This document shows, piece after piece, positions 33,830-43,427 of a DNA stretch of 64,000 bases. A program made the position numbers and the translations under genes. Where the stretch lies: positions 25,001 through 89,000 of the forward strand of contig JBEKNW010000001.1 of NCBI GenBank assembly GCA_049522435.1. Reading direction: 5' to 3'. Origin of the DNA: Xanthobacteraceae bacterium (GTDB lineage Bacteria > Pseudomonadota > Alphaproteobacteria > Rhizobiales > Xanthobacteraceae). How positions within the stretch are numbered: the first letter of the stretch is position 1; the number at the start of each line of letters is the position of its first letter. The notes under the pieces are model-generated. The model saw only the letters and a list, made by a program, of their open reading frames with translations, was not told the origin of the DNA and did not search any database.

Positions 33830-35194
33830 TCAAGCTGCCTTGCGTTTAGGCTCGAGCATCGCGAAGGCAGCAAGCACCTCGTCAATTGAACCCGCCGGCC
33901 AGCGGTCGACGAAGGCCTCCAGACGATCAAAGGCAGAAGACGGCACGTTCTGTTCGGTGCCAATTCGGCGGACCAGCTGGGAGACTCCGGCGCGATCATA
34001 GGCGTAATCGCGCGCGGTCATTCGCTGATCCTGCACGATGGTGCGGCCATCGGTCATCTCTGCCTCGATAACGGTGGAAAGCGTTGCAACCTTGTCATCG
34101 CTTACCAGTGCGATCCGGCCGATCAATTCGTTCACCTTGGGGTCGTTGTAGGTCGTCATCCGCTTCATATCCGGGACACCGTAGAGCAAGGTGGCGGCGA
34201 TGCAGAAGGGAATGCTCATCAGCGTGCCAGAGATGGAGTTGAATGGGCCGACTGCATCCATGCCGGCGTATCCGGTCTCATAGGGATTCATATGCACGCG
34301 AACGGCTTTGATGGGGGCATCCGCGATCTTTTCGCGCAACACGAGCGCGGCAGTTACCGGCGTCTGGTTGAAGGCACAGACCGGGTAGGGTTTGAACGCG
34401 ACGCGCAAAATCGCCCAATCCTCGCCAAGGCGTCGTGCGAGCGCTTCAACGTCGCAATCGCCGCGAGCAAAGGCACGCACGAATCCCGACTTGCCCTCGA
34501 ATGCGTGCGGCGCAGAAACTGAGCCCGCCTTGGCAAGCTCGGCCGCGAGCCAGCCGGTTTTTCCAACGACGCCGACCTGGTACCGCCACTCATCCGTGCC
34601 ATCGGCGAAGGACTGCAGGAGACCGCCCGCGAACGATGCCGCATTTGCGAGCGCCGCAGCGAGACGATCTTCGTCGAGGCCGAGGAGTTTTCCGGCTGCG
34701 GCCGCTGCTGCGATAATCCCGTAGACGGTGGACGCACGGAAGCCCACTGGTGTCGTCATGCCCGCATAAGCCTTCTCCAGAAGCCCACCGGCTTCGTAGC
34801 CGGCAACGAGCGCCGGTATGAGACGTTCCACCGGTAAGCGCCGCGCTTCGATCAGCGCGGTCAGCAGCGGGATAATAATGGTGCCGAAATGAGCAGCGCC
34901 GCAGGTATCCTCCTGGGCGCGCCCATGGAACAGGGCGGAATTGGCGACACAAGCCCCACCGATCGAGGTCTTACGGCCGTCGCCAAGGAGTGTTGCGCCG
35001 CCACGTTGCTCGCCATCCATGGCGAGGGCGGCCGTGCGAGCAACAATGGCATAGGGTGTATCGTGGCAGTCGAGCCCCATGGCGTAACCGTTGAGCAGGC
35101 ACACGCGCGCCTTCTCGACGACCTCGGCTGGCATGCGGGCGGTGTCAAGGCGGTGAATGAAACTCGCCATCTGCTGCGACAACGTGCTGGCCAT
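33830..35194 (-). CDS. MmgE/PrpD family protein (2-methylcitrate dehydratase-like)
   Basis: 454 aa. The N-terminus (FIHRLDTARMPAEVVEKARVCLLNGYAMGL) and overall pattern are typical of PrpD-family proteins. Confidence 0.8.
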   Translation of the reverse strand: MASTLSQQMASFIHRLDTARMPAEVVEKARVCLLNGYAMGLDCHDTPYAIVARTAALAMDGEQRGGATLLGDGRKTSIGGACVANSALFHGRAQEDTCGAAHFGTIIIPLLTALIEARRLPVERLIPALVAGYEAGGLLEKAYAGMTTPVGFRASTVYGIIAAAAAAGKLLGLDEDRLAAALANAASFAGGLLQSFADGTDEWRYQVGVVGKTGWLAAELAKAGSVSAPHAFEGKSGFVRAFARGDCDVEALARRLGEDWAILRVAFKPYPVCAFNQTPVTAALVLREKIADAPIKAVRVHMNPYETGYAGMDAVGPFNSISGTLMSIPFCIAATLLYGVPDMKRMTTYNDPKVNELIGRIALVSDDKVATLSTVIEAEMTDGRTIVQDQRMTARDYAYDRAGVSQLVRRIGTEQNVPSSAFDRLEAFVDRWPAGSIDEVLAAFAMLEPKRKAA

Positions 35195-35228
35195 GGAACC
35201 CTCCTTCGGGCGAAGCCCGGCTTAGTCT

Positions 35229-35560
35229 TATCGCAAGATACCGCTGCCGGATCCTCGCATTTGCTCGGAGACCCTCAATGGTATCGCGAAAAACGATCTG
35301 TCCCTTGTCGATCACAGTCGCCTCGGTTGCGATCCTGAGACAGAAGTGCATGTTCTGCTCGGCAATGAGAACGGTCGCGCCCATATCGCGCAAGCGACGA
35401 AGAAGTTCACCAATGCGCTGCACGACGATGGGGGCAAGCCCCTCGCTGGGCTCGTCCAGGAGGAGCGCAATCGGGTTCCCCATCAGGGTGCGTGCGATCG
35501 CTTCTTATTGCCGCTTATTCTGGAACATCCGTCACCAGCCGTCAAGGAACATGACTAGTG
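35229..35560 (-). pseudogene. Decayed LivF-like ABC ATPase gene (C-terminal two-thirds, no Walker A, internal stops)
   Basis: ORF 35145..35483 reads MGNPIALLLDEPSEGLAPIVVQRIGELLRRLRDMGATVLIAEQNMHFCLRIATEATVIDKGQIVFRDTIEGLRANARIRQRYLAI, which covers Walker B, the D-loop, the H-loop and the LivF tail. Upstream, the expected signature region reads FQNKRQ*EAIARTLM with in-frame TAA and TGA stops. Confidence 0.6.
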
Positions 35561-35569
35561 AATCACTAA

Positions 35570-36667
35570 TCATATTTGATCGTTGCGGGCATTGATCGCG
35601 AACAGCAGCTGGGCCGTCGCCGCCACGCTGCCGTCGCGGCGATTCTCGGTGACCCGCACGCTAACGTGCGCGACACCCTCGGCCCGTTGATCGCAGCGCG
35701 CCGAGGCGACGAGCGTCTTAGCGCGCGTTGTGGCAAGCAGACCGACCGTCAGATTGAGCAGCTTCGGGAAGCGTTTGCCACTGCGGCTGGCGACCGCTGC
35801 AGCCGCCGTTTCGATGAGTTCGATCACGATGCCGCGCCGCACCGCTCCGCTTAAATCTCGATGTGCCTCGGAGATCCGTGCATTGAGTATCGCCGAGGAA
35901 TCGTCGGCGCTGACCGATTCCATCCGCGGCGGCGCAGAGATTCCGCTACCCGCATTCGACGCGGGCAGGCGCTGACGCCGCGATCGATCGTTCACGTCCC
36001 CGAATGTAAAGCCCCCGGTGATGAACTTCAGGTATGTCTTAAGGACCCATGCTGGCAGCGGATCGTTTGCGCCTTCGCGATAGATGAAGTGATAAGAAAT
36101 ATAGTTGCGGGCGGCGAGCAGGATGCAGACGATGACGTCCAATTCTTCTTCGCTGTAGCCGCCGAGCTCTCCCTCCTGCTTGTTCCGCCGCAAGGACCGC
36201 AAATAGCCCTGGGTCATATTGTCCATGTGGTGGCGGAACGCCTTGGGGGAGAAAGTCTCGGCTTCGTTGAGGATCCGGTAGAATTCCGGCGTCTGGTGCA
36301 GGAACTCAAAAAACGCCTGAAAGCCGATCTGCTCGCGCTTGAGGCCATCCTTGCATCCGCCGAGACGTTTGCGGATATAGTCGAGCAATTGTTGACCCAG
36401 TTCGGGCAGCAGCTGATCAAAGAGGTCCTGCTGCGATTCGAAATAGTTGTAGAACGTCCCCTGGGCTACGCGCGACTTGGCAGTGATTTTCGCGACCGAA
36501 GCGTTGGCGTAGCCCTCGAGACCGACGATTTGCGTTGCCGCGGCAATCAATTTGCGGCGGGTTGCCGCCGATTTGTCAGCACGGGTCATGCCGCCGCGCG
36601 GGCGGGCTATCGTGGTCTTTAAGGCGCCGAGCTTGCCGCGGGTTGGCATTTTCACGTCCTGAAACAC
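35570..36667 (-). CDS. TetR/AcrR family regulator with an extra ~125-aa C-terminal hotdog (PaaI thioesterase-like) domain
   Basis: N-terminal HTH: RRKLIAAATQIVGLEGYANASVAKITAKSRVAQGTFYNYFESQQDLF. The protein is 365 aa, against ~200 for a normal TetR. The tail ...LSGAVRRGIVIELIETAAAAVASRSGKRFPKLLNLTVGLLATTRAKTLVASARCDQRAEGVAHVSVRVTENRRDGSVAATAQLLFAI follows the PaaI/4HBT pattern. Confidence 0.75.
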   Translation of the reverse strand: MFQDVKMPTRGKLGALKTTIARPRGGMTRADKSAATRRKLIAAATQIVGLEGYANASVAKITAKSRVAQGTFYNYFESQQDLFDQLLPELGQQLLDYIRKRLGGCKDGLKREQIGFQAFFEFLHQTPEFYRILNEAETFSPKAFRHHMDNMTQGYLRSLRRNKQEGELGGYSEEELDVIVCILLAARNYISYHFIYREGANDPLPAWVLKTYLKFITGGFTFGDVNDRSRRQRLPASNAGSGISAPPRMESVSADDSSAILNARISEAHRDLSGAVRRGIVIELIETAAAAVASRSGKRFPKLLNLTVGLLATTRAKTLVASARCDQRAEGVAHVSVRVTENRRDGSVAATAQLLFAINARNDQI

Positions 36668-36704
36668 AAGAAAGAAGCGCGCCGCCGGCGCGCCACATCG
36701 GTCT

Positions 36705-36730
36705 CCTCATGTCAAATGCATGACATGAGG
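36705..36730. promoter_or_regulatory. Candidate TetR operator: perfect 10-bp inverted repeat CCTCATGTCA-N6-TGACATGAGG
   Basis: Read directly. Lies in the 166-bp divergent region between the TetR-fusion gene and the E1 alpha gene. Confidence 0.45.
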
Positions 36731-36833
36731 ATCGGGCAACGGCAATTATGAATGGTGAGTCTATGTTCATTTTTGTGTTGACTCAAGTCTCTACCGGTCG
36801 CCATATTTAAAAAACAGGATTGCGGACGGTGCG

Positions 36834-37859
36834 GTGCGATCCCGTCAAGCCCGCAGCAGCGAGGCGCGATTGACTCGATCCCAGGCGAAGCTTTCGGCAT
36901 CCGAGCTGCTGCAGCTGTATGCCGGCATGAGGCTGGTCCGCGAAGTGGAACAGCGCCTGTCCGGGCTGTTCAGTGACGGGGAGATTCCCGGCTTCATTCA
37001 TCTTTCGATCGGTCAGGAGGCGGTTCCGATCGGAATCGTGGCCGCGCTGCAGCCGGGCGACACGCTTGCTTCGAATCATCGCGGCCATGGCCATGCGATC
37101 GCCAAGGGGCTCGATCTTTCGCGGTTCTTCCTGGAAATCCTCGGCCGGCGCGAAGGCTATTGCCGTGGCCGCGGCGGCTCCATGCATGTGGCGGACATGT
37201 CGGTTGGGATGCTCGGCGCCAACGGCATCGTGGGGGCGGGCCTCCCAATCGCGGTTGGCAGCGCGCTCGCTCATCAGCTGCGCAAGAATGGAAACATCGC
37301 CTCCGTGTTCTTTGGCGATGGCGCGCTAGCCGAAGGAGTACTCCATGAAAGCTTCAATCTGGCCGCGTTGTGGAGGCTTCCCGTCCTCTTCGTCTGCGAG
37401 AACAATGGCTGGTCCGAATTCTCGCCCGCCTCGCGCCAGATAGCCGCGGAAGCGCCGGGCCTTGCCCGCGCCTTTGGCATCGGAACTGAGACCGTGGACG
37501 GAAATGACGTCGTAGCCGTTCGCGCCGCTGCCCTCGCCGCAGTCGGACGAATCCGCGACGGCGACGGCCCGTTCCTGATCGAATGCAAGACCACAAGAAT
37601 ACGCGGCCATTTTGAAGGCGATCCTCAGAAGTATCGCGACGCGGCCGACCTCGAGGCGGCCGGGCGCAAGGATCCGATCAAGCGCGCCGAAGAAACGCTG
37701 CGCAAGATGGGCGTGTCGGAGGCCGATATCGCCGCCGCCGCGGACACGGCAGCGCGCCGCGTCGACGAGGCCGTCGCGATCGGGCGTGCCGGCACGTCGC
37801 CAATTCCCTCCGAGGCTCTGGCCGATGTCTATGCGAAGGTTGCGGAGGCGCGTCGATGA
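36834..37859 (+). CDS. Thiamine-diphosphate-dependent 2-oxoacid (pyruvate/acetoin/branched-chain type) dehydrogenase E1 alpha subunit
   Basis: TPP-binding motif FFGDGALAEGVLHESFNLAALWRLPVLFVCENNGWS. GTG start. Confidence 0.85.
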   Translation: MRSRQARSSEARLTRSQAKLSASELLQLYAGMRLVREVEQRLSGLFSDGEIPGFIHLSIGQEAVPIGIVAALQPGDTLASNHRGHGHAIAKGLDLSRFFLEILGRREGYCRGRGGSMHVADMSVGMLGANGIVGAGLPIAVGSALAHQLRKNGNIASVFFGDGALAEGVLHESFNLAALWRLPVLFVCENNGWSEFSPASRQIAAEAPGLARAFGIGTETVDGNDVVAVRAAALAAVGRIRDGDGPFLIECKTTRIRGHFEGDPQKYRDAADLEAAGRKDPIKRAEETLRKMGVSEADIAAAADTAARRVDEAVAIGRAGTSPIPSEALADVYAKVAEARR

Positions 37860-38830
37860 CCGAGGTCAGGTTCGGGCAAGCCGTCAACCGCGCGCTCGCC
37901 GATGCGATGGCGCAGGACCAAGCGGTGGTGCTCCTCGGCGAGGACGTGGCCGCCGCAGGAGGCCCCTTCGGCGTCACGCGCGGTCTTCTCGACCGCTTCG
38001 GCCCGGAACGGGTGCGCGACACGCCCATATCGGAGGCTGCCATCGTCGGCGCGGCGGTCGGCGCGGCGATGTCTGGCCTGCGGCCGGTCGTCGAGATCAT
38101 GTTCATGGATTTCGTGACGCTCGCCATGGATGCTCTGGTCAACCAGGCTGCCAAGGCGCGCTTTATGTTCGGCGGGCAAGTGTCCGTGCCGATCGTCGTG
38201 CGCATGCCGCACGGGGGCGGCATCAACGCCGGCCCGCAGCATTCGCAGTGCCTCGAAGCTTGGCTTGCCCATGTCCCCGGCCTCAAGGTCGTATGTCCAG
38301 CAAACGTGGCGGATGCCTATGCGCTTCTGCGCGCCGCGATCGACGACGACGATCCGGTGATCGTCATCGAGAACAAGGCTCTTTATGCGACCAAGGGCGA
38401 ATTGCCTGAGCCGAAACCTTCTGCGTCGATCGGGCAGGCGCGAATTGCAAGGCCGGGCCAAGACATTACCATCGTAACCTATGGCGCGATGGTGACAGTT
38501 GCTCTCGCCGCCGCGACCGAGCTCGAAAAAGAAGGCATCAACGCCGAGGTGATCGATCTGCGGAGCCTGCAGCCTTGGGATGAAACCGCGGTCTTGGAAT
38601 CGCTTTCTCGAACCCACCGCGTGGTCGTTTGTCACGAGGCTGTGGAGGCATTTGGCACCGGCGCCGAGATCGTCGCACGGCTGGCCGACATCGGATTCGA
38701 CGAACTCGACGGCCCCTTGGTCCGCGTCGGCGCGCCCTTTATGCCGCCGCCTTTCGCCAAGACGTTGGAAGACTGGTTCCGGCCCGACCCCGCGCGCGTG
38801 ATCGCGGCGGTGAAGCGGGCGATCGGGTGA
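37856..38830 (+). CDS. 2-oxoacid dehydrogenase E1 beta subunit
   Basis: VVLLGEDVAAAGGPFGVTRGLLDRFGPERVRDTPISEAAIVGAAVGAAMSGLRPVVEIMFMDF. The start overlaps the E1 alpha stop. Confidence 0.9.
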   Translation: MTEVRFGQAVNRALADAMAQDQAVVLLGEDVAAAGGPFGVTRGLLDRFGPERVRDTPISEAAIVGAAVGAAMSGLRPVVEIMFMDFVTLAMDALVNQAAKARFMFGGQVSVPIVVRMPHGGGINAGPQHSQCLEAWLAHVPGLKVVCPANVADAYALLRAAIDDDDPVIVIENKALYATKGELPEPKPSASIGQARIARPGQDITIVTYGAMVTVALAAATELEKEGINAEVIDLRSLQPWDETAVLESLSRTHRVVVCHEAVEAFGTGAEIVARLADIGFDELDGPLVRVGAPFMPPPFAKTLEDWFRPDPARVIAAVKRAIG

Positions 38831-38843
38831 GGGGAGGATCAAT

Positions 38844-39626
38844 ATGTCTGAGCGCGTCCTGGTGGAGAGTACCGATCATATTGCCGTCCTGACCATCAAT
38901 CGGCCGCAGGCGCTCAATGCCCTCGATGTACCAACCCTGCTCGAGCTCGAAGCCGCTTTCGAACAGCTCGAACGCGACGACGATGTTCGCGTCATCATCT
39001 TCACCGGCGCCGGCGACCGCGCCTTCGTGGCAGGAGGCGATATCGCTGATCTGAACTCGCGCAACGGCCTGGCGCATTACCGAGAATTCGCCGAAGTCGT
39101 GCATCGCGTTTTCCGGCGCATCGAGATTTGCGACAAGCCAACGATCGCTGCCGTCAATGGCTACGCGCTCGGCGGCGGCACCGAGCTCATTCTGGCGACT
39201 GACATCCGTATTCTCGCCGACACCGCCCGCCTCGGCCTTCCTGAAATTACGCTCGGCCTGTTTCCCGGCGCTGGCGGGACGCAGCGGATCATTCGGCAGG
39301 TGCCGCCCTGCCGCGCCAAGGAGATCATGTTCACGGGCGAGCAGATATCCGCTGCGGAGGCAGTCGCGATCGGGCTTGCGAACAAGGTGGTGCCGAAGGA
39401 GAGCGTTCTGACCGAGGCGCGCGGCCTCGCAGCGAAGATCGCGGCCAAGAGCCCGCTGGTGCTAAAATTACTCAAGCGGACGCTGATCAACGGCGCCGAC
39501 ATGCCGCTGTCGGCTGCGCTTCCTTACGAGCAGAGCATGATCGGTCTCGTGCTCGACACCAGTGATGCGCACGAGGGCTGCACGGCATTCCTCGAAAAAC
39601 GATTGCCGACATTTACCGGACGCTGA
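38844..39626 (+). CDS. Enoyl-CoA hydratase/isomerase (crotonase) family protein
   Basis: FVAGGDIADL and GYALGGGTELILATDIRILADTARLGLPEITLGLFPGAGGTQR, the oxyanion-hole and catalytic Glu region. Confidence 0.9.
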   Translation: MSERVLVESTDHIAVLTINRPQALNALDVPTLLELEAAFEQLERDDDVRVIIFTGAGDRAFVAGGDIADLNSRNGLAHYREFAEVVHRVFRRIEICDKPTIAAVNGYALGGGTELILATDIRILADTARLGLPEITLGLFPGAGGTQRIIRQVPPCRAKEIMFTGEQISAAEAVAIGLANKVVPKESVLTEARGLAAKIAAKSPLVLKLLKRTLINGADMPLSAALPYEQSMIGLVLDTSDAHEGCTAFLEKRLPTFTGR

Positions 39627-39630
39627 CGCC

Positions 39631-40731
39631 ATGACCGCGACGGATTTCGTCATGCCGAAGCTCGGGCTGACGATGACCGAGGGCACGATCGCGCGCTGGA
39701 GCGTCGCACCGGGCAGCCATTTTGAGGCCGGCGACGTCATCGTCGTCGTCGAGACCGACAAGATTGCTTACGACGTCGAAGCACCGGCTCCCGGTATTCT
39801 TCACGCGGTCCTGGTTTCCGAAGGCAATGCAGTTCCAGTTGGCACGCCGATAGGGCGATGGGAGGTCGGTGACGTCGAAGTCTCCCTTGACGCACCGGCG
39901 GAGGCTGAACCTGTGGTCGACGAACCCGCTGCTCCGCCGCGCATTGGTTCGGAAGAAATGCGTATTCCGGCAACGACGCCGTCCGCAGGCGACGGCGAAC
40001 GTATCCTGGCAACGCCTTATGCGCGGCGGCTGGCCCGGGAAGCAAGCATCGATCTTCGTTCGGTCAACGGCAGTGGCCCGCGCGGCCGGATCAAGGCGGC
40101 GGACGTCAATCGGGCAATCGCAGCGCGCGGATCCCGCGCTGTGGCGCCAGCGCACGGCCCCGTCGCCGAGCAGTCGCGGACCGCCGTGATTACCGCTGGC
40201 GCTGAGGTCGACATCACGCGACTTCTCACGCTCAATGCGGACATCAATCGGGGCGTGCCGACCTTGCACGCCGAACTCGTGCATTATGTTGCTCTGGCCG
40301 CCTCGCGGGCATTAAATATCGCCCCCGATCAATTGGTCATCGGGCTGGCACGGGGCCGCGATGGAGCGGCGGGAATGGCCAGCATGCTCAGAAAGGACGA
40401 CTGCCGGAGCCTCGGCGGCATCGTCGCCCGCATCGAGAGTAGTACCGCGGCTGACGCATCGTCGCCGCCTGGCACTCTTTGGATCGACCGCGCGCAGGAG
40501 GGCATTTCCTTCTTCTCGGCCGATCCGCCAGCCGGATGGCCGGCTTCAATCAGCGTCGGTTCAGTACGAAGTGAATTTCGCCCTGACCCCGAAGGCCAGC
40601 CGGTACGTGCGACCGCGGCCACTCTCGTGCTCGCGTGCCGTGCCGGGGAGTTCGACCCCGCTTCGACGCAGAGCTTGTTGGGCCGAATCCGCGCGCTGCT
40701 CGAAACCCCCCTCCTTCTCCTCGCTAGCTGA
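39631..40731 (+). CDS. Dihydrolipoamide acyltransferase (E2)-like protein: lipoyl domain, E1/E3-binding domain and a shortened, degenerate catalytic domain
   Basis: FVMPKLGLTMTEGTIARW...VVVETDKIAYDVEAP contains the lipoyl-Lys. LATPYARRLAREASIDLRSVNGSGPRGRIKAADV is the binding domain (PSBD). The C-terminal ~180 aa lack the DHRxxDG motif; the aligned stretch reads LVLACRAGEFDPA. Confidence 0.75.
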   Translation: MTATDFVMPKLGLTMTEGTIARWSVAPGSHFEAGDVIVVVETDKIAYDVEAPAPGILHAVLVSEGNAVPVGTPIGRWEVGDVEVSLDAPAEAEPVVDEPAAPPRIGSEEMRIPATTPSAGDGERILATPYARRLAREASIDLRSVNGSGPRGRIKAADVNRAIAARGSRAVAPAHGPVAEQSRTAVITAGAEVDITRLLTLNADINRGVPTLHAELVHYVALAASRALNIAPDQLVIGLARGRDGAAGMASMLRKDDCRSLGGIVARIESSTAADASSPPGTLWIDRAQEGISFFSADPPAGWPASISVGSVRSEFRPDPEGQPVRATAATLVLACRAGEFDPASTQSLLGRIRALLETPLLLLAS

Positions 40732-40745
40732 ATATAGGTGCGCCC

Positions 40746-41918
40746 ATGGATTTCCTTTTGTCAGAAGACCAAAAAATGATTGCGGAGACGGCGCGCAAGG
40801 TCGGGGATCAGTTCGGGCTCGACTATTGGCGCGATCTCGACGCCAAGAAGAGTTTTCCGGCCGAATTCTGGGGCGCGGTCTGCAAAGCAGGATTGTGCGG
40901 CGTCGCGCTTCCCGAACAGTACGGGGGGGCCGGCCTGGGAATGCTGGAAATGGCTTTGATCGTGGAGACCCTCGCAGCCTGCGGCGGCGGCTCGACGGTT
41001 GGCCAGCTATTCATGGTCAATCCGATCTTCGGAGGGGTCTCCATTGCGCGTTTCGGCTCCGCGGCCATGAAGTCCGAGCTGCTGCCCAAGCTGGTGGCAG
41101 GGGAGATCAATTGCTGCATGGCGTTGACCGAGCCCGATTCGGGTTCTAACAGTCTCGAAATAAAGACCTTCGCGACGCGGGAAGGCAACGGCTGGCGTCT
41201 CAACGGCCGCAAGATCTGGATTACCGCCGTCGATGCCGCGCAGAAAATGCTCGTCATCGCGCGAACTACGAAGGCGCAGGAAGTCAAGCGCCGCACCGAC
41301 GGCCTTTCGATGTTCATTATCGACGTGGAGCGCAAAGGCCTGACCTTCACGCCGATCGATAAGCTCGGCACCAACACCTTGTCTTCGTGCAGCGTCTTTT
41401 TCGAGGACGTGCGTGTCGACGGCGGCGAATTGGTCGGCACGCTCGACCAGGGCTGGCATGAGCTGCTCGATGTGCTCAACACCGAGCGGATCGTGACAAC
41501 CGCTGGTTTGGTGGGGGCCGGCGATCTTGCTCTTCGCCAGGCCGTCGCCTATGCGAACGAGCGGCGCGTCTTCGGCAATAAGCCGATCGGAACTTATCAG
41601 GGAATCCAGTTTCCCCTCGCCCAGTCATTTGCCGAGATCGAATGCGCAAGATTGATGAACTACAAAGCGGCGGCGCTGTTCGACAAAGGCCTGCCTTACG
41701 GATCGGAGGCGAACACCGCCAAGCTCATTGCTTCCCAGGCAGCCTCGACCGCAATTGAGAATGCGATGCAAACGCTCGGCGGAATGGGATACGCCAAAGA
41801 GATGCACCTTGAACGGTTGTGGCGTGACGCACGCCTATTCCGCTTCGCCCCGATCTCCGAGCAGATGATTCTCAATTTCATTGCCATGCAGAATCTTGGA
41901 TTGCCGCGGTCTTACTGA
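40746..41918 (+). CDS. Acyl-CoA dehydrogenase
   Basis: 390 aa. CMALTEPDSGSNS, and the C-terminal IYQGIQ...LGGMGYAKEMHLERLWRDARLFRFAPISEQM pattern. Confidence 0.9.
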   Translation: MDFLLSEDQKMIAETARKVGDQFGLDYWRDLDAKKSFPAEFWGAVCKAGLCGVALPEQYGGAGLGMLEMALIVETLAACGGGSTVGQLFMVNPIFGGVSIARFGSAAMKSELLPKLVAGEINCCMALTEPDSGSNSLEIKTFATREGNGWRLNGRKIWITAVDAAQKMLVIARTTKAQEVKRRTDGLSMFIIDVERKGLTFTPIDKLGTNTLSSCSVFFEDVRVDGGELVGTLDQGWHELLDVLNTERIVTTAGLVGAGDLALRQAVAYANERRVFGNKPIGTYQGIQFPLAQSFAEIECARLMNYKAAALFDKGLPYGSEANTAKLIASQAASTAIENAMQTLGGMGYAKEMHLERLWRDARLFRFAPISEQMILNFIAMQNLGLPRSY

Positions 41919-41939
41919 GGCGGCGCGAGGTGCCAACCG

Positions 41940-43427
41940 ATGATGAATCTATCAAGCTTCATTCGCTTCCATGCCATGCGGACACCGCAGCGAATTGCCG
42001 TCGTTTTCAAAGATCAACACATCACTTTTGCTGAGCTGTTGCATCGCATCGAGAAAACCGCAGGTTATCTCGCGGCGCAGGGCATAAGGCCTGACGACGT
42101 TGTCGCCGTTGTGATGAAGAACAGTGCAGCTTTTCTTGAACTTGCATTTGCTGTCAGTCATCTCGGTGCGGTATTTTTGCCCATCAATTTTCGCCTTGCT
42201 GCTGACGAGGTCGAGTACATCACCGGAAACGCGGAGGCGAAACTTGTGTTCGCGGATGCGGAATTCGCGGCCGCCGTTGAAAACATCCGGTCGACAATCC
42301 TCCTGGACGACGCGGCCCAGGACGACACCACCACTATTTCGGGGGACCATCCGCCAGCGCCAATGCATGTGCGAAAACCGGACGAACTGTTCCGCCTGAT
42401 GTACACGTCCGGCACGACCGATCGGCCGAAAGGGGTGATGCACACCTACGATAATTTCTACTGGAAATGCATCGATCATGTAATTGCGCTTGGGCTTAAT
42501 CAGGATGACCGCTTACTTGTGACAGGTCCGCTCTACCACGTGGGTGCATTCGACTTGCCAGGCGTCGCAGTGCTGTGGGTCGGAGGGATGCTTTGTATCC
42601 ACCGCGATTTCAACGTCGAGCGCGTGCTGAACTCAATTGCCACTGAGAAGCTTACGAGTGCCTGGCTTGCGCCCGTCATGCTGGGCGCCATTTTGGCTCA
42701 TCCGGATCGTGCGGCTTTCGACGTCTCGAGCTTACGTTGGGTCATTGGCGGCGGTGAGCGGACGCCAGAATCGCGGATCCGCCAGTTCTTCGAATATTTC
42801 ACGCAGGGCCGATACATTGATGCGTACGGGCTGACCGAATCGGGTAGCGGCGACACGTTCATGGAGGCGGGTCGCGAGATCGAGAAGATTGGATCGGTGG
42901 GGCGCGCGCTCGCACATGTCGAAGTCGCAATTTGCAATCCACAAGGACACCATCTGCCGGCCGGCGAGCCCGGGGAGATCTGCTTACGCGGGCCGAAGAT
43001 CACGCGAGGTTATTGGCGAGATGCGAAGAAAACGGCGGCTTGTTTCCACGGCGACTGGTTCCGCACCGGGGATGTCGGCTATCTCGACGAGGAGGGATTC
43101 CTCTATCTCACGGATCGCGTGAAGGACATGATCATCTCGGGTGGCGAGAACATCGCCTCTTCCGAAGTCGAGCGTGTCGTCTATCAGATGCCGCAAGTTC
43201 GCGAAGCGGCCGTCATCGGCCTGCCCGACGAAAAATGGGGGGAGCGTCCGGTCGTAGTGGCCGCGCTCAATGTCGGGCATAGCCTCGATTACGAGACGCT
43301 GGCAAAGCATTGTCGCGCGCACCTCGCAGGCTTCAAGGTACCGAAGCAATTGATTCTGCGGGAGCAGTTGCCGCGCAATCCCTCGGGCAAGGTGTTGAAG
43401 CGCCTGTTGCGGGATGAGCTCAAGTAG
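41940..43427 (+). CDS. AMP-dependent acyl-CoA synthetase/ligase
   Basis: LMYTSGTTDRPKGV (AMP-binding motif), YGLTES, GDVGYLDEEGFLYLTDRVKDMI, and the C-terminal LPRNPSGKVLKRLLR. Confidence 0.9.
   Translation: MMNLSSFIRFHAMRTPQRIAVVFKDQHITFAELLHRIEKTAGYLAAQGIRPDDVVAVVMKNSAAFLELAFAVSHLGAVFLPINFRLAADEVEYITGNAEAKLVFADAEFAAAVENIRSTILLDDAAQDDTTTISGDHPPAPMHVRKPDELFRLMYTSGTTDRPKGVMHTYDNFYWKCIDHVIALGLNQDDRLLVTGPLYHVGAFDLPGVAVLWVGGMLCIHRDFNVERVLNSIATEKLTSAWLAPVMLGAILAHPDRAAFDVSSLRWVIGGGERTPESRIRQFFEYFTQGRYIDAYGLTESGSGDTFMEAGREIEKIGSVGRALAHVEVAICNPQGHHLPAGEPGEICLRGPKITRGYWRDAKKTAACFHGDWFRTGDVGYLDEEGFLYLTDRVKDMIISGGENIASSEVERVVYQMPQVREAAVIGLPDEKWGERPVVVAALNVGHSLDYETLAKHCRAHLAGFKVPKQLILREQLPRNPSGKVLKRLLRDELK

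Follow-up and report, generated by a model that had tools for sequence, protein, structure and literature searches.

A catalytically degenerate E2-like lipoyl protein predicted in a conserved six-gene operon of a Xanthobacteraceae bacterium

INTRODUCTION

Every 2-oxoacid dehydrogenase complex is built around its E2 component, which is central to both structure and catalysis. What, then, might be the role of an E2 that lacks the catalytic residues and is encoded in an operon without a second E2? This question is raised by a gene in a 64,000-nucleotide stretch of contig JBEKNW010000001.1 of a Xanthobacteraceae bacterium (the window), which encodes an E2-like lipoyl protein among the genes of a catabolic operon. 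A reading of this DNA from the letters alone (the sequence-only reading) had described a protein with intact lipoyl and peripheral-subunit-binding domains, a shortened C-terminal domain, and Arg-Ala in place of the catalytic Asp-His pair. It had proposed that the protein may be a lipoyl carrier or scaffold like the eukaryotic E3-binding protein (E3BP), or that the acyl-lipoyl intermediate may be handed to another enzyme of the cluster.

Here, we report that the gene is, as judged from sequence comparisons, a lineage-specific and catalytically degenerate ortholog of the E2 in a conserved six-gene operon. What is new is the dead form of E2 in an operon that otherwise carries a canonical E2 with the DHRxxDG motif and is widespread in Proteobacteria. 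To our knowledge, catalytically dead E2 paralogs are textbook matter only for the eukaryotic pyruvate dehydrogenase complex (E3BP), and our literature searches found no relevant description of a bacterial operon-encoded pseudo-E2 or of the pathway of this operon.

RESULTS

The lipoyl and docking domains of the E2-like protein are intact

The features of the E2-like gene in the window are as follows.

39631-40731, +: E2-like gene, 366 amino acids (lipoyl domain, peripheral-subunit-binding domain (PSBD) and degenerate core domain), from the open reading frame translation, Pfam and the family search
39643-39855, +: lipoyl domain, residues 5-75 (PF00364 Biotin_lipoyl, 64.6 bits)
39760-39762, +: codon of the lipoyl-lysine Lys44, within the motif VETDKIAYDVEAP
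40003-40107, +: peripheral-subunit (E1/E3) binding domain, residues 125-159 (PF02817 E3_binding, 53.9 bits)
40162-40728, +: predicted shrunken E2-core-fold domain, residues 178-366 (alignments, AlphaFold2 (AF2) and Foldseek)
40486-40488, +: Asp286, at the site of the oxyanion Ser/Thr in the canonical 'G-x-x-T-[IV]-S-N' strand (two alignments)
40639-40647, +: Arg337-Ala338-Gly339, at the site of the catalytic Asp-His-Arg (profile, hhalign and MAFFT alignments)
40702-40728, +: conserved C-terminal helix ETPLLLLAS, corresponding to the canonical E2 'LExPxxLL' end (conservation of E358, P360 and L364)

The two Pfam matches confirm that the lipoyl domain and the PSBD are intact. In an alignment with 35 homologs, Lys44 (VETDKIA) and its flanking residues were invariant, and so was the PSBD motif TPxARRLAR...GSGPxGRI, which is generic. 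The start codon lies 4 nt 3' of the stop codon of the crotonase gene and the gene ends 14 nt 5' of the acyl-CoA dehydrogenase (ACAD) gene, and the first Met of the reading frame is also the start of the family alignment.

Catalytic residues of E2 are absent from the aligned positions of the core domain

Pfam found no PF00198 match in the E2-like protein, even when the last 200 residues were searched alone at E<=10, and the NCBIfam E2 models matched its N-terminal half only, with scores far under their cut-offs. The core domain is indeed shortened, with 189 amino acids versus the 232 positions of the PF00198 profile. To place its residues against those of canonical E2s, we used three independent alignments: the family profile with human E2p, hhalign, and MAFFT with the orthologous canonical E2s of the same operon. 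In all three, R337-A338, which are part of LVLACRAGEFDP (residues 332-343), stand opposite the Asp-His of DHRxxDG, so the substitution that had been noticed by eye is real. With the family profile, residues 281-364 aligned to the end of human E2p, 'GTLWIER' being opposite 'GTFTISN' and 'LTaRAseLD' opposite 'LSCDHRVVDG'. With hhalign, the core domain matched the four canonical E2s of the same genome at 90.8% probability (E=1.4e-7) from column 33 of the 245 template columns, in the identical R-A/D-H register. The clearest evidence is the MAFFT alignment, which, together with the profile alignment where stated, gave the following comparison.

Canonical LVLSVDHRVLDG against LVLACRAGEFDP of the window protein: D to R337, H to A338, R to G339, D342 kept, G to P343 (MAFFT)
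Canonical GGAITVSNAG against GTLWID-RA of the window protein: Ser to D286 (profile and MAFFT)
Canonical ARRLxxAKQxIPHFYL segment: deleted in the window protein (MAFFT)
Canonical hairpin 'PEANRVWDD...' of about 20 amino acids: deleted in the window protein (MAFFT)
Part of one canonical helix: deleted in the window protein (MAFFT)

The position of D286 is less certain than that of the His, as hhalign in global mode deletes that strand, and the Ser is absent either way. In total, about 55 residues are deleted from the core, including the conserved N-terminal segment.

The sequence-only reading had held that no transfer of the acyl group to CoA should occur by the standard mechanism without the His. 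This argument stands only in a wider form. In the E. coli E2o, the H375A mutation decreased the activity only 54-fold, while H375G kept 13% and H375W kept 60% of the activity; five Ala substitutions in the active site together amounted to about 125,000-fold (PMC5986005). Because the H375A and H375G proteins stay partly active, loss of the His alone is no proof of inactivity. The case for inactivity is made because Asp, His, Arg, and Ser are all lost and about 55 residues are deleted.

The predicted fold of the core domain is that of E2

The AF2 model of the core domain alone had a predicted local distance difference test (pLDDT) score of 84 and a predicted template modeling (pTM) score of 0.84; it was used instead of the full-length model, which was of low quality (pLDDT 63, and less than 50 for residues 231-281). 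In line with the structural comparison that the sequence-only reading had proposed, Foldseek showed that the domain model resembles solved E2 cores (TMq 0.73-0.82, E about 1e-11) and a human E3BP model (6h60, TMq 0.79). In this model, the C-terminal domain retains the chloramphenicol acetyltransferase (CAT)-like E2 core fold. The inter-trimer contact in E2 cores is made by the C-terminal helix, and E358, P360, and L364 of this helix are invariant in the family and in the whole clade of dead E2s described below. Taken together, the profile, ortholog, and structural comparisons agree in predicting that the core domain is a shrunken E2 core fold from which the catalytic motifs are gone.

No replacement active site is conserved among the dead E2s

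A search of 5.8 billion proteins returned at least 120 clusters of homologs with 52-96% identity and a length of about 355-370 amino acids, which had the same two N-terminal Pfam domains only. The sequence-only reading had considered that a frameshift or sequencing artefact might have truncated a normal catalytic domain; the recurrence of the same length (about 365 amino acids) and two-domain architecture in these clusters argues against it. When the core domain was searched against 1.84 billion representatives using phmmer, there were only 43 matches at E<=1e-3.

In the 35-sequence alignment, the invariant or nearly invariant C-terminal residues were G190, H218, G238, C258, R259, W284, P299, P300, R313, D319, E358, P360, and L364. 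It had also been suggested that a conserved His/Asp pair elsewhere in the domain would speak against a dead E2, and H218 was the candidate for such a His. We rule out H218 as a relocated catalytic His: the same His is found in catalytic orthologs ('LTLTHF', 'ISVNHL'), and the L025/L026/L029 branch of the dead clade (homologous loci carry L numbers) has lost H218, C258, and R259 altogether. In the dead clade as a whole, invariance is limited to Leu, Ala, Gly, Pro, and Ile residues, together with D194 and E358. No replacement polar residue is conserved clade-wide among the dead E2s, as D194 and E358 are common to canonical E2s. Thus, the conservation pattern of the dead clade is, at the level of sequence, that of a structural domain and does not point to a replacement active site.

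Dead E2s form one clade among canonical E2s of the same operon

Most of the 80 operon loci that we fetched have a canonical E2 of 400-450 amino acids with DHRxxDG; such E2s were found in Paraburkholderia xenovorans, Azospirillum, Bordetella, Marinobacter, Sneathiella, and others. His-less E2s were found in Hyphomicrobiales-type metagenome-assembled genomes (MAGs; L019-L031, L005, L007, and L016-L018) and in one Immundisolibacter MAG (L085). The expectation that orthologs would share the substitution was therefore borne out for a dead clade, but not for most orthologs of the operon. Between the two forms, the PF00198 score decays from 200 bits in the Azospirillum ortholog (L066) to 30 in L016 and 17 in L026, and to no match in the fully reduced forms. 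L016 has 'SYAASEL' at the catalytic site, while L025 and L026, of which L026 was scanned against PF00198, have 'YDGAIVDH' and 'YDSTALDH', respectively. Another intermediate, P0156 (371 amino acids), has 'LSCDQRAHSA' (His to Gln) and keeps 'ITVSNVG' and the Asp, without the IPHFY segment.

In a maximum-likelihood tree, the 15 dead E2s group into a single clade (support 100/99) with a long stem, which is consistent with a single loss event behind the dead E2s. An independent loss in Immundisolibacter was considered and is not upheld, as the tree nests L085 inside the single dead clade; the branch of L085 is very long (1.5), and horizontal transfer and long-branch attraction are not separable in this tree. 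The gene is sparsely distributed. The ACAD of the operon was found in 1 of 40 other species of the genus, and core-domain matches in 5 of 300 species of the family, all with at most 40% identity; two of these five matches (L013 and L014) are to canonical E2s of the same operon, in which DHR is present. Class-wide, 300 genomes gave one marginal core-domain match (E=9.3e-6, with an in-frame stop).

A reverse reduction was observed at L038, L040, L074, and L079, which are betaproteobacterial and related operons. In their E2s of about 330 amino acids, a lipoyl domain and an intact catalytic domain with DHRVxDG are present but no PSBD is recognizable (no TPxARRLA...GSGPxGRI), and their C-terminal end is changed to 'LE(L/A)P..LF(A/D)'.

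Purifying selection differs among the domains

Between the window and L019, the closest pair (dS about 0.2), the ratio of nonsynonymous to synonymous substitutions (dN/dS) was 0.52 for the E2-like gene, versus 0.11 for E1 beta, 0.10 for crotonase, 0.08 for ACAD, and 0.14 for the ligase. By domain, dN/dS was 0.04-0.19 for the lipoyl domain in more distant pairs (0.31 in the near-identical window-L019 pair), 0.05-0.14 for the PSBD, and 0.17-0.53 for the core domain over all pairs (0.17-0.32 in more distant pairs); the values from the more distant pairs, whose dS is close to saturation, are approximate. E1 beta is 85-94% identical to its orthologs with dN/dS of about 0.10, and the ligase has dN/dS of 0.07-0.14. 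At an ACAD identity of 88-91%, the canonical E2s of the operon are 67-75% identical and the dead E2s 56-64%. Thus, the canonical E2s evolve faster than their ACADs too, but to a lesser degree than the dead E2s. Purifying selection is strong on the lipoyl and docking domains, and the constraint on the core domain is weaker but real. Judged by these per-domain values, the lipoyl arm and the docking domain are clearly in use, while the core domain is constrained more loosely.

Gene content of the operon is the same with live and dead E2s

The other genes of the operon and its frequent companions in the window are as follows.

36834-37859, +: E1 alpha (PF00676, PF02779 and PF02780 for the E1 pair)
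37856-38830, +: E1 beta (Pfam), with E1 alpha the partner 2-oxoacid decarboxylase
38844-39626, +: enoyl-CoA hydratase (crotonase; Pfam), located between the E1 beta and E2 genes in all operon versions
40746-41918, +: ACAD (Pfam and NCBIfam)
41940-43427, +: AMP-forming acyl-CoA ligase (Pfam and NCBIfam)
33830-35194, -: MmgE/PrpD-family gene, a frequent companion of the operon
35570-36667, -: TetR regulator of 365 amino acids, a frequent companion of the operon

Around the close homologs of the E2-like gene, the order of the six genes is kept: E1 alpha, E1 beta, crotonase, E2, ACAD, and AMP-ligase. With the ACAD used as anchor, over 500 operon loci were found among the Alpha-, Beta-, and Gammaproteobacteria, including those of Paraburkholderia xenovorans LB400, Azospirillum brasilense, Bordetella petrii, Marinobacter, Piscinibacter sakaiensis, and Sneathiella. 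ACAD and the ligase are kept 3' of live and dead E2s alike, and the AMP-forming ligase is two genes 3' of E2 in all 17 dead-E2 loci with enough sequence. A ligase-less canonical locus (L015) had prompted the idea that the ligase compensates for the lost transferase. We rejected this idea: because the ligase also adjoins almost all canonical E2s, it is ancestral and not compensatory. The suggested hand-off of the acyl-lipoyl intermediate to another enzyme of the cluster likewise found no comparative support, as the gene content is the same with a live or a dead E2.

Several other features of the setting were observed. The MmgE/PrpD-family gene accompanies the operon in many genomes at varying positions (33830-43427 in the window; L040, L046-L050, L057-L066, and others), and EthD and Liv-type ABC transporter genes flank the operon in the closest relatives. 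In the TetR regulator, the TetR_N Pfam match covers residues 40-85 only and a C-terminal extension of about 150 amino acids has no Pfam match; similarly long TetR genes adjoin dead-E2 operons (L019 and L017) and some live-E2 operons (L050 and L075). In the dead-E2 loci L016, L018, L030, L031, and L020, tblastn matches in ACAD, ligase, E1, or E2 genes are split, which could be due to assembly frameshifts or to early decay of the operon.

The genome encodes four canonical E2s elsewhere

A six-frame PF00198 search found four canonical E2 loci in the genome, the window gene not being among them. One of them (L002; contig C72, 12645-13994, -) encodes an orphan E2 of 450 amino acids with no E1 genes nearby, and is flanked by an aldehyde-dehydrogenase-like and a D-2-hydroxyacid-dehydrogenase-like open reading frame. 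This orphan was rejected as a dedicated partner of the window protein. Essentially every one of the 40 congeners searched has it, about 35 of them at 71-83% identity, and only one carries the operon, so that there is no co-occurrence signal. The genome has at least seven E1 alpha/beta pairs versus four canonical E2s, and contigs C183, C137, C288, and C70 carry E1 pairs with no adjoining PF00198 E2; the draft assembly and its short contigs may explain part of this excess.

DISCUSSION

In the present study, we describe an E2 ortholog that keeps its lipoyl arm and docking domain and is predicted to have a core without an active site. The best reading of the evidence is that the protein probably carries the lipoyl group and serves as a docking scaffold without being catalytic, as a bacterial analogue of the eukaryotic E3BP. 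Of the roles put forward by the sequence-only reading, this one fits best, considering the E2-core fold of the model (pLDDT 84) and the conservation throughout the dead clade, which is confined to the C-terminal helix and to hydrophobic, Gly, and Pro residues. In such a complex, E1 alpha/beta would dock on the PSBD and reductively acylate the lipoyl group on Lys44, a housekeeping E3 would re-oxidize the lipoyl arm, and the sole role of the core domain would be to oligomerize and present the arms, as E3BP does in the eukaryotic pyruvate dehydrogenase complex. As to how the acyl group is unloaded, we tentatively favor a route in trans, in which one of the four canonical E2s encoded in the genome passes it to CoA at its own active site. 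Such unloading is feasible in vitro: when the catalytic domain of E2o is expressed separately, it can take over intermediates from a lipoyl domain to which it is not linked (PMC5986005). In a second and rather less likely route, the acyl group would be released as the free acid by hydrolysis and then re-activated by the AMP-ligase of the operon.

Several observations weigh against a non-catalytic scaffold served by another E2. Single His substitutions leave 2-60% of the activity in the E. coli E2o (PMC5986005), so some residual activity would be possible by sequence, and H218, C258, and R259 are invariant among the close family members. Furthermore, a partner catalytic E2 is not encoded in the operon, and the orphan E2 on contig C72 belongs to the core genes of the genus with or without the dead E2.

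It is improbable, in our view, that the compact domain is still an acyltransferase which transfers the lipoyl acyl group to CoA weakly or via H218, C258, and R259. The tolerance of E2o for His375 substitutions (PMC5986005), the invariance of these three residues in the family of 52-96% identity, and the purifying selection on the core domain would all fit with such an activity. However, Asp, His, Arg, and Ser are all replaced, the conserved N-terminal segment is among the residues deleted, and the effects of the five active-site Ala substitutions in E2o multiply (PMC5986005); H218 is inherited from catalytic orthologs, and the three residues are lost in one branch of the dead clade. Also unlikely is a complex that releases the free acid, in which hydrolysis of the acyl-dihydrolipoyl thioester, either spontaneous or on the scaffold, is followed by resynthesis of the CoA ester by the AMP-ligase, so that a transferase is dispensable. 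The constant presence of the ligase in dead-E2 loci and its high conservation are in its favor, but the ligase is equally found beside almost all canonical E2s, the route wastes a thioester and then costs ATP, and no thioesterase has been gained in the operon.

That the E2-like gene is a decaying relic on its way to loss, with only the other genes of the operon being of importance, is very improbable. The gene does evolve about five times faster than its neighbors in the closest pair (dN/dS 0.52 versus about 0.1), in which the middle of the core domain (residues 231-281) is nearly neutral. Nevertheless, at least 120 clusters have preserved the open frame and its length, Lys44 and the PSBD are invariant, E1 alpha/beta is retained and constrained, the dN/dS of the core is below 1 in all longer comparisons, and the predicted fold is confident. 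The chance of a sequencing or frameshift artefact is negligible: the genome is a draft of 317 contigs, but the same architecture and length are found in independent assemblies, and the alignment is collinear through the canonical C-terminal 'LExPxxLL'. A non-catalytic carrier and scaffold thus remains our preferred reading.

The comparison with known systems places this protein more precisely. Like the eukaryotic E3BP (protein X), it has the order of lipoyl domain, PSBD, and E2-core-like domain, and in fungal E3BP the core-like domain is also reduced in size. The core-like domain of E3BP, too, is without the catalytic His and is taken as inactive, and the reason for its inactivity is still debated (PMC10156792). 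Unlike E3BP, the window protein arose, according to the tree, independently in a bacterial operon from the operon's own E2, which makes it an analogue and not a member. E3BP invariably acts together with E2p, while no gene for a catalytic E2 lies next to that of the window protein. With the canonical E2s of the same operon (P. xenovorans LB400 chromosome 3, A. brasilense, and Sneathiella), it shares the place between crotonase and ACAD, the lipoyl and PSBD motifs, 'GVGSxRxxFRPD..G.P', the His of 'LTLTHF', and the C-terminal 'LExPxxLL'. Unlike the window protein, these are 400-450 amino acids long and keep IPHFY, TxSN, and DHRxxDG, and the only one scanned with Pfam, the Azospirillum L066, matches PF00198 with 200 bits, versus none for the window protein.

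The top NCBIfam match was the AcoC-type acetoin dehydrogenase E2 (NF011457), likewise a bacterial lipoyl/PSBD protein with a non-standard C-terminal domain. However, the match had 101 bits versus a cut-off of 307 and covered only profile positions 2-141 of 372, and the C-terminal domain of AcoC has an alpha/beta-hydrolase fold whereas that of the window protein is a predicted E2 core. A split between lipoyl arm and transferase is also known from actinobacterial OdhA, which uses the lipoyl domains of E2p. Like the isolated E. coli E2o domains in vitro (PMC5986005), the window protein has a lipoyl domain that could be unloaded by an unlinked catalytic domain; unlike in the split systems, no dedicated partner transferase was identified for it.

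In summary, the outcome known from E3BP, a dead E2, appears to have arisen inside a bacterial catabolic operon without a second E2. Annotations of these dead forms as 'pyruvate dehydrogenase E2' are, on this reading, wrong as to activity. The operon itself occurs in hundreds of proteobacterial genomes. The value of the system is a natural series of live, intermediate, and dead E2s within one operon, a natural test of a complex without its central enzyme, with live orthologs available in cultured bacteria such as Azospirillum and Paraburkholderia. We also raise the conjecture, which we hold to be doubtful, that this clade may run a lipoyl-dependent 2-oxoacid dehydrogenase without any CAT-type transacylase, with the arm discharged by hydrolysis or to a non-CoA acceptor and the CoA ester made by the AMP-ligase. 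If true, this transacylase-free mode would be a previously undescribed operation for the enzyme class, reached via a stepwise decay of which the intermediates are still extant.

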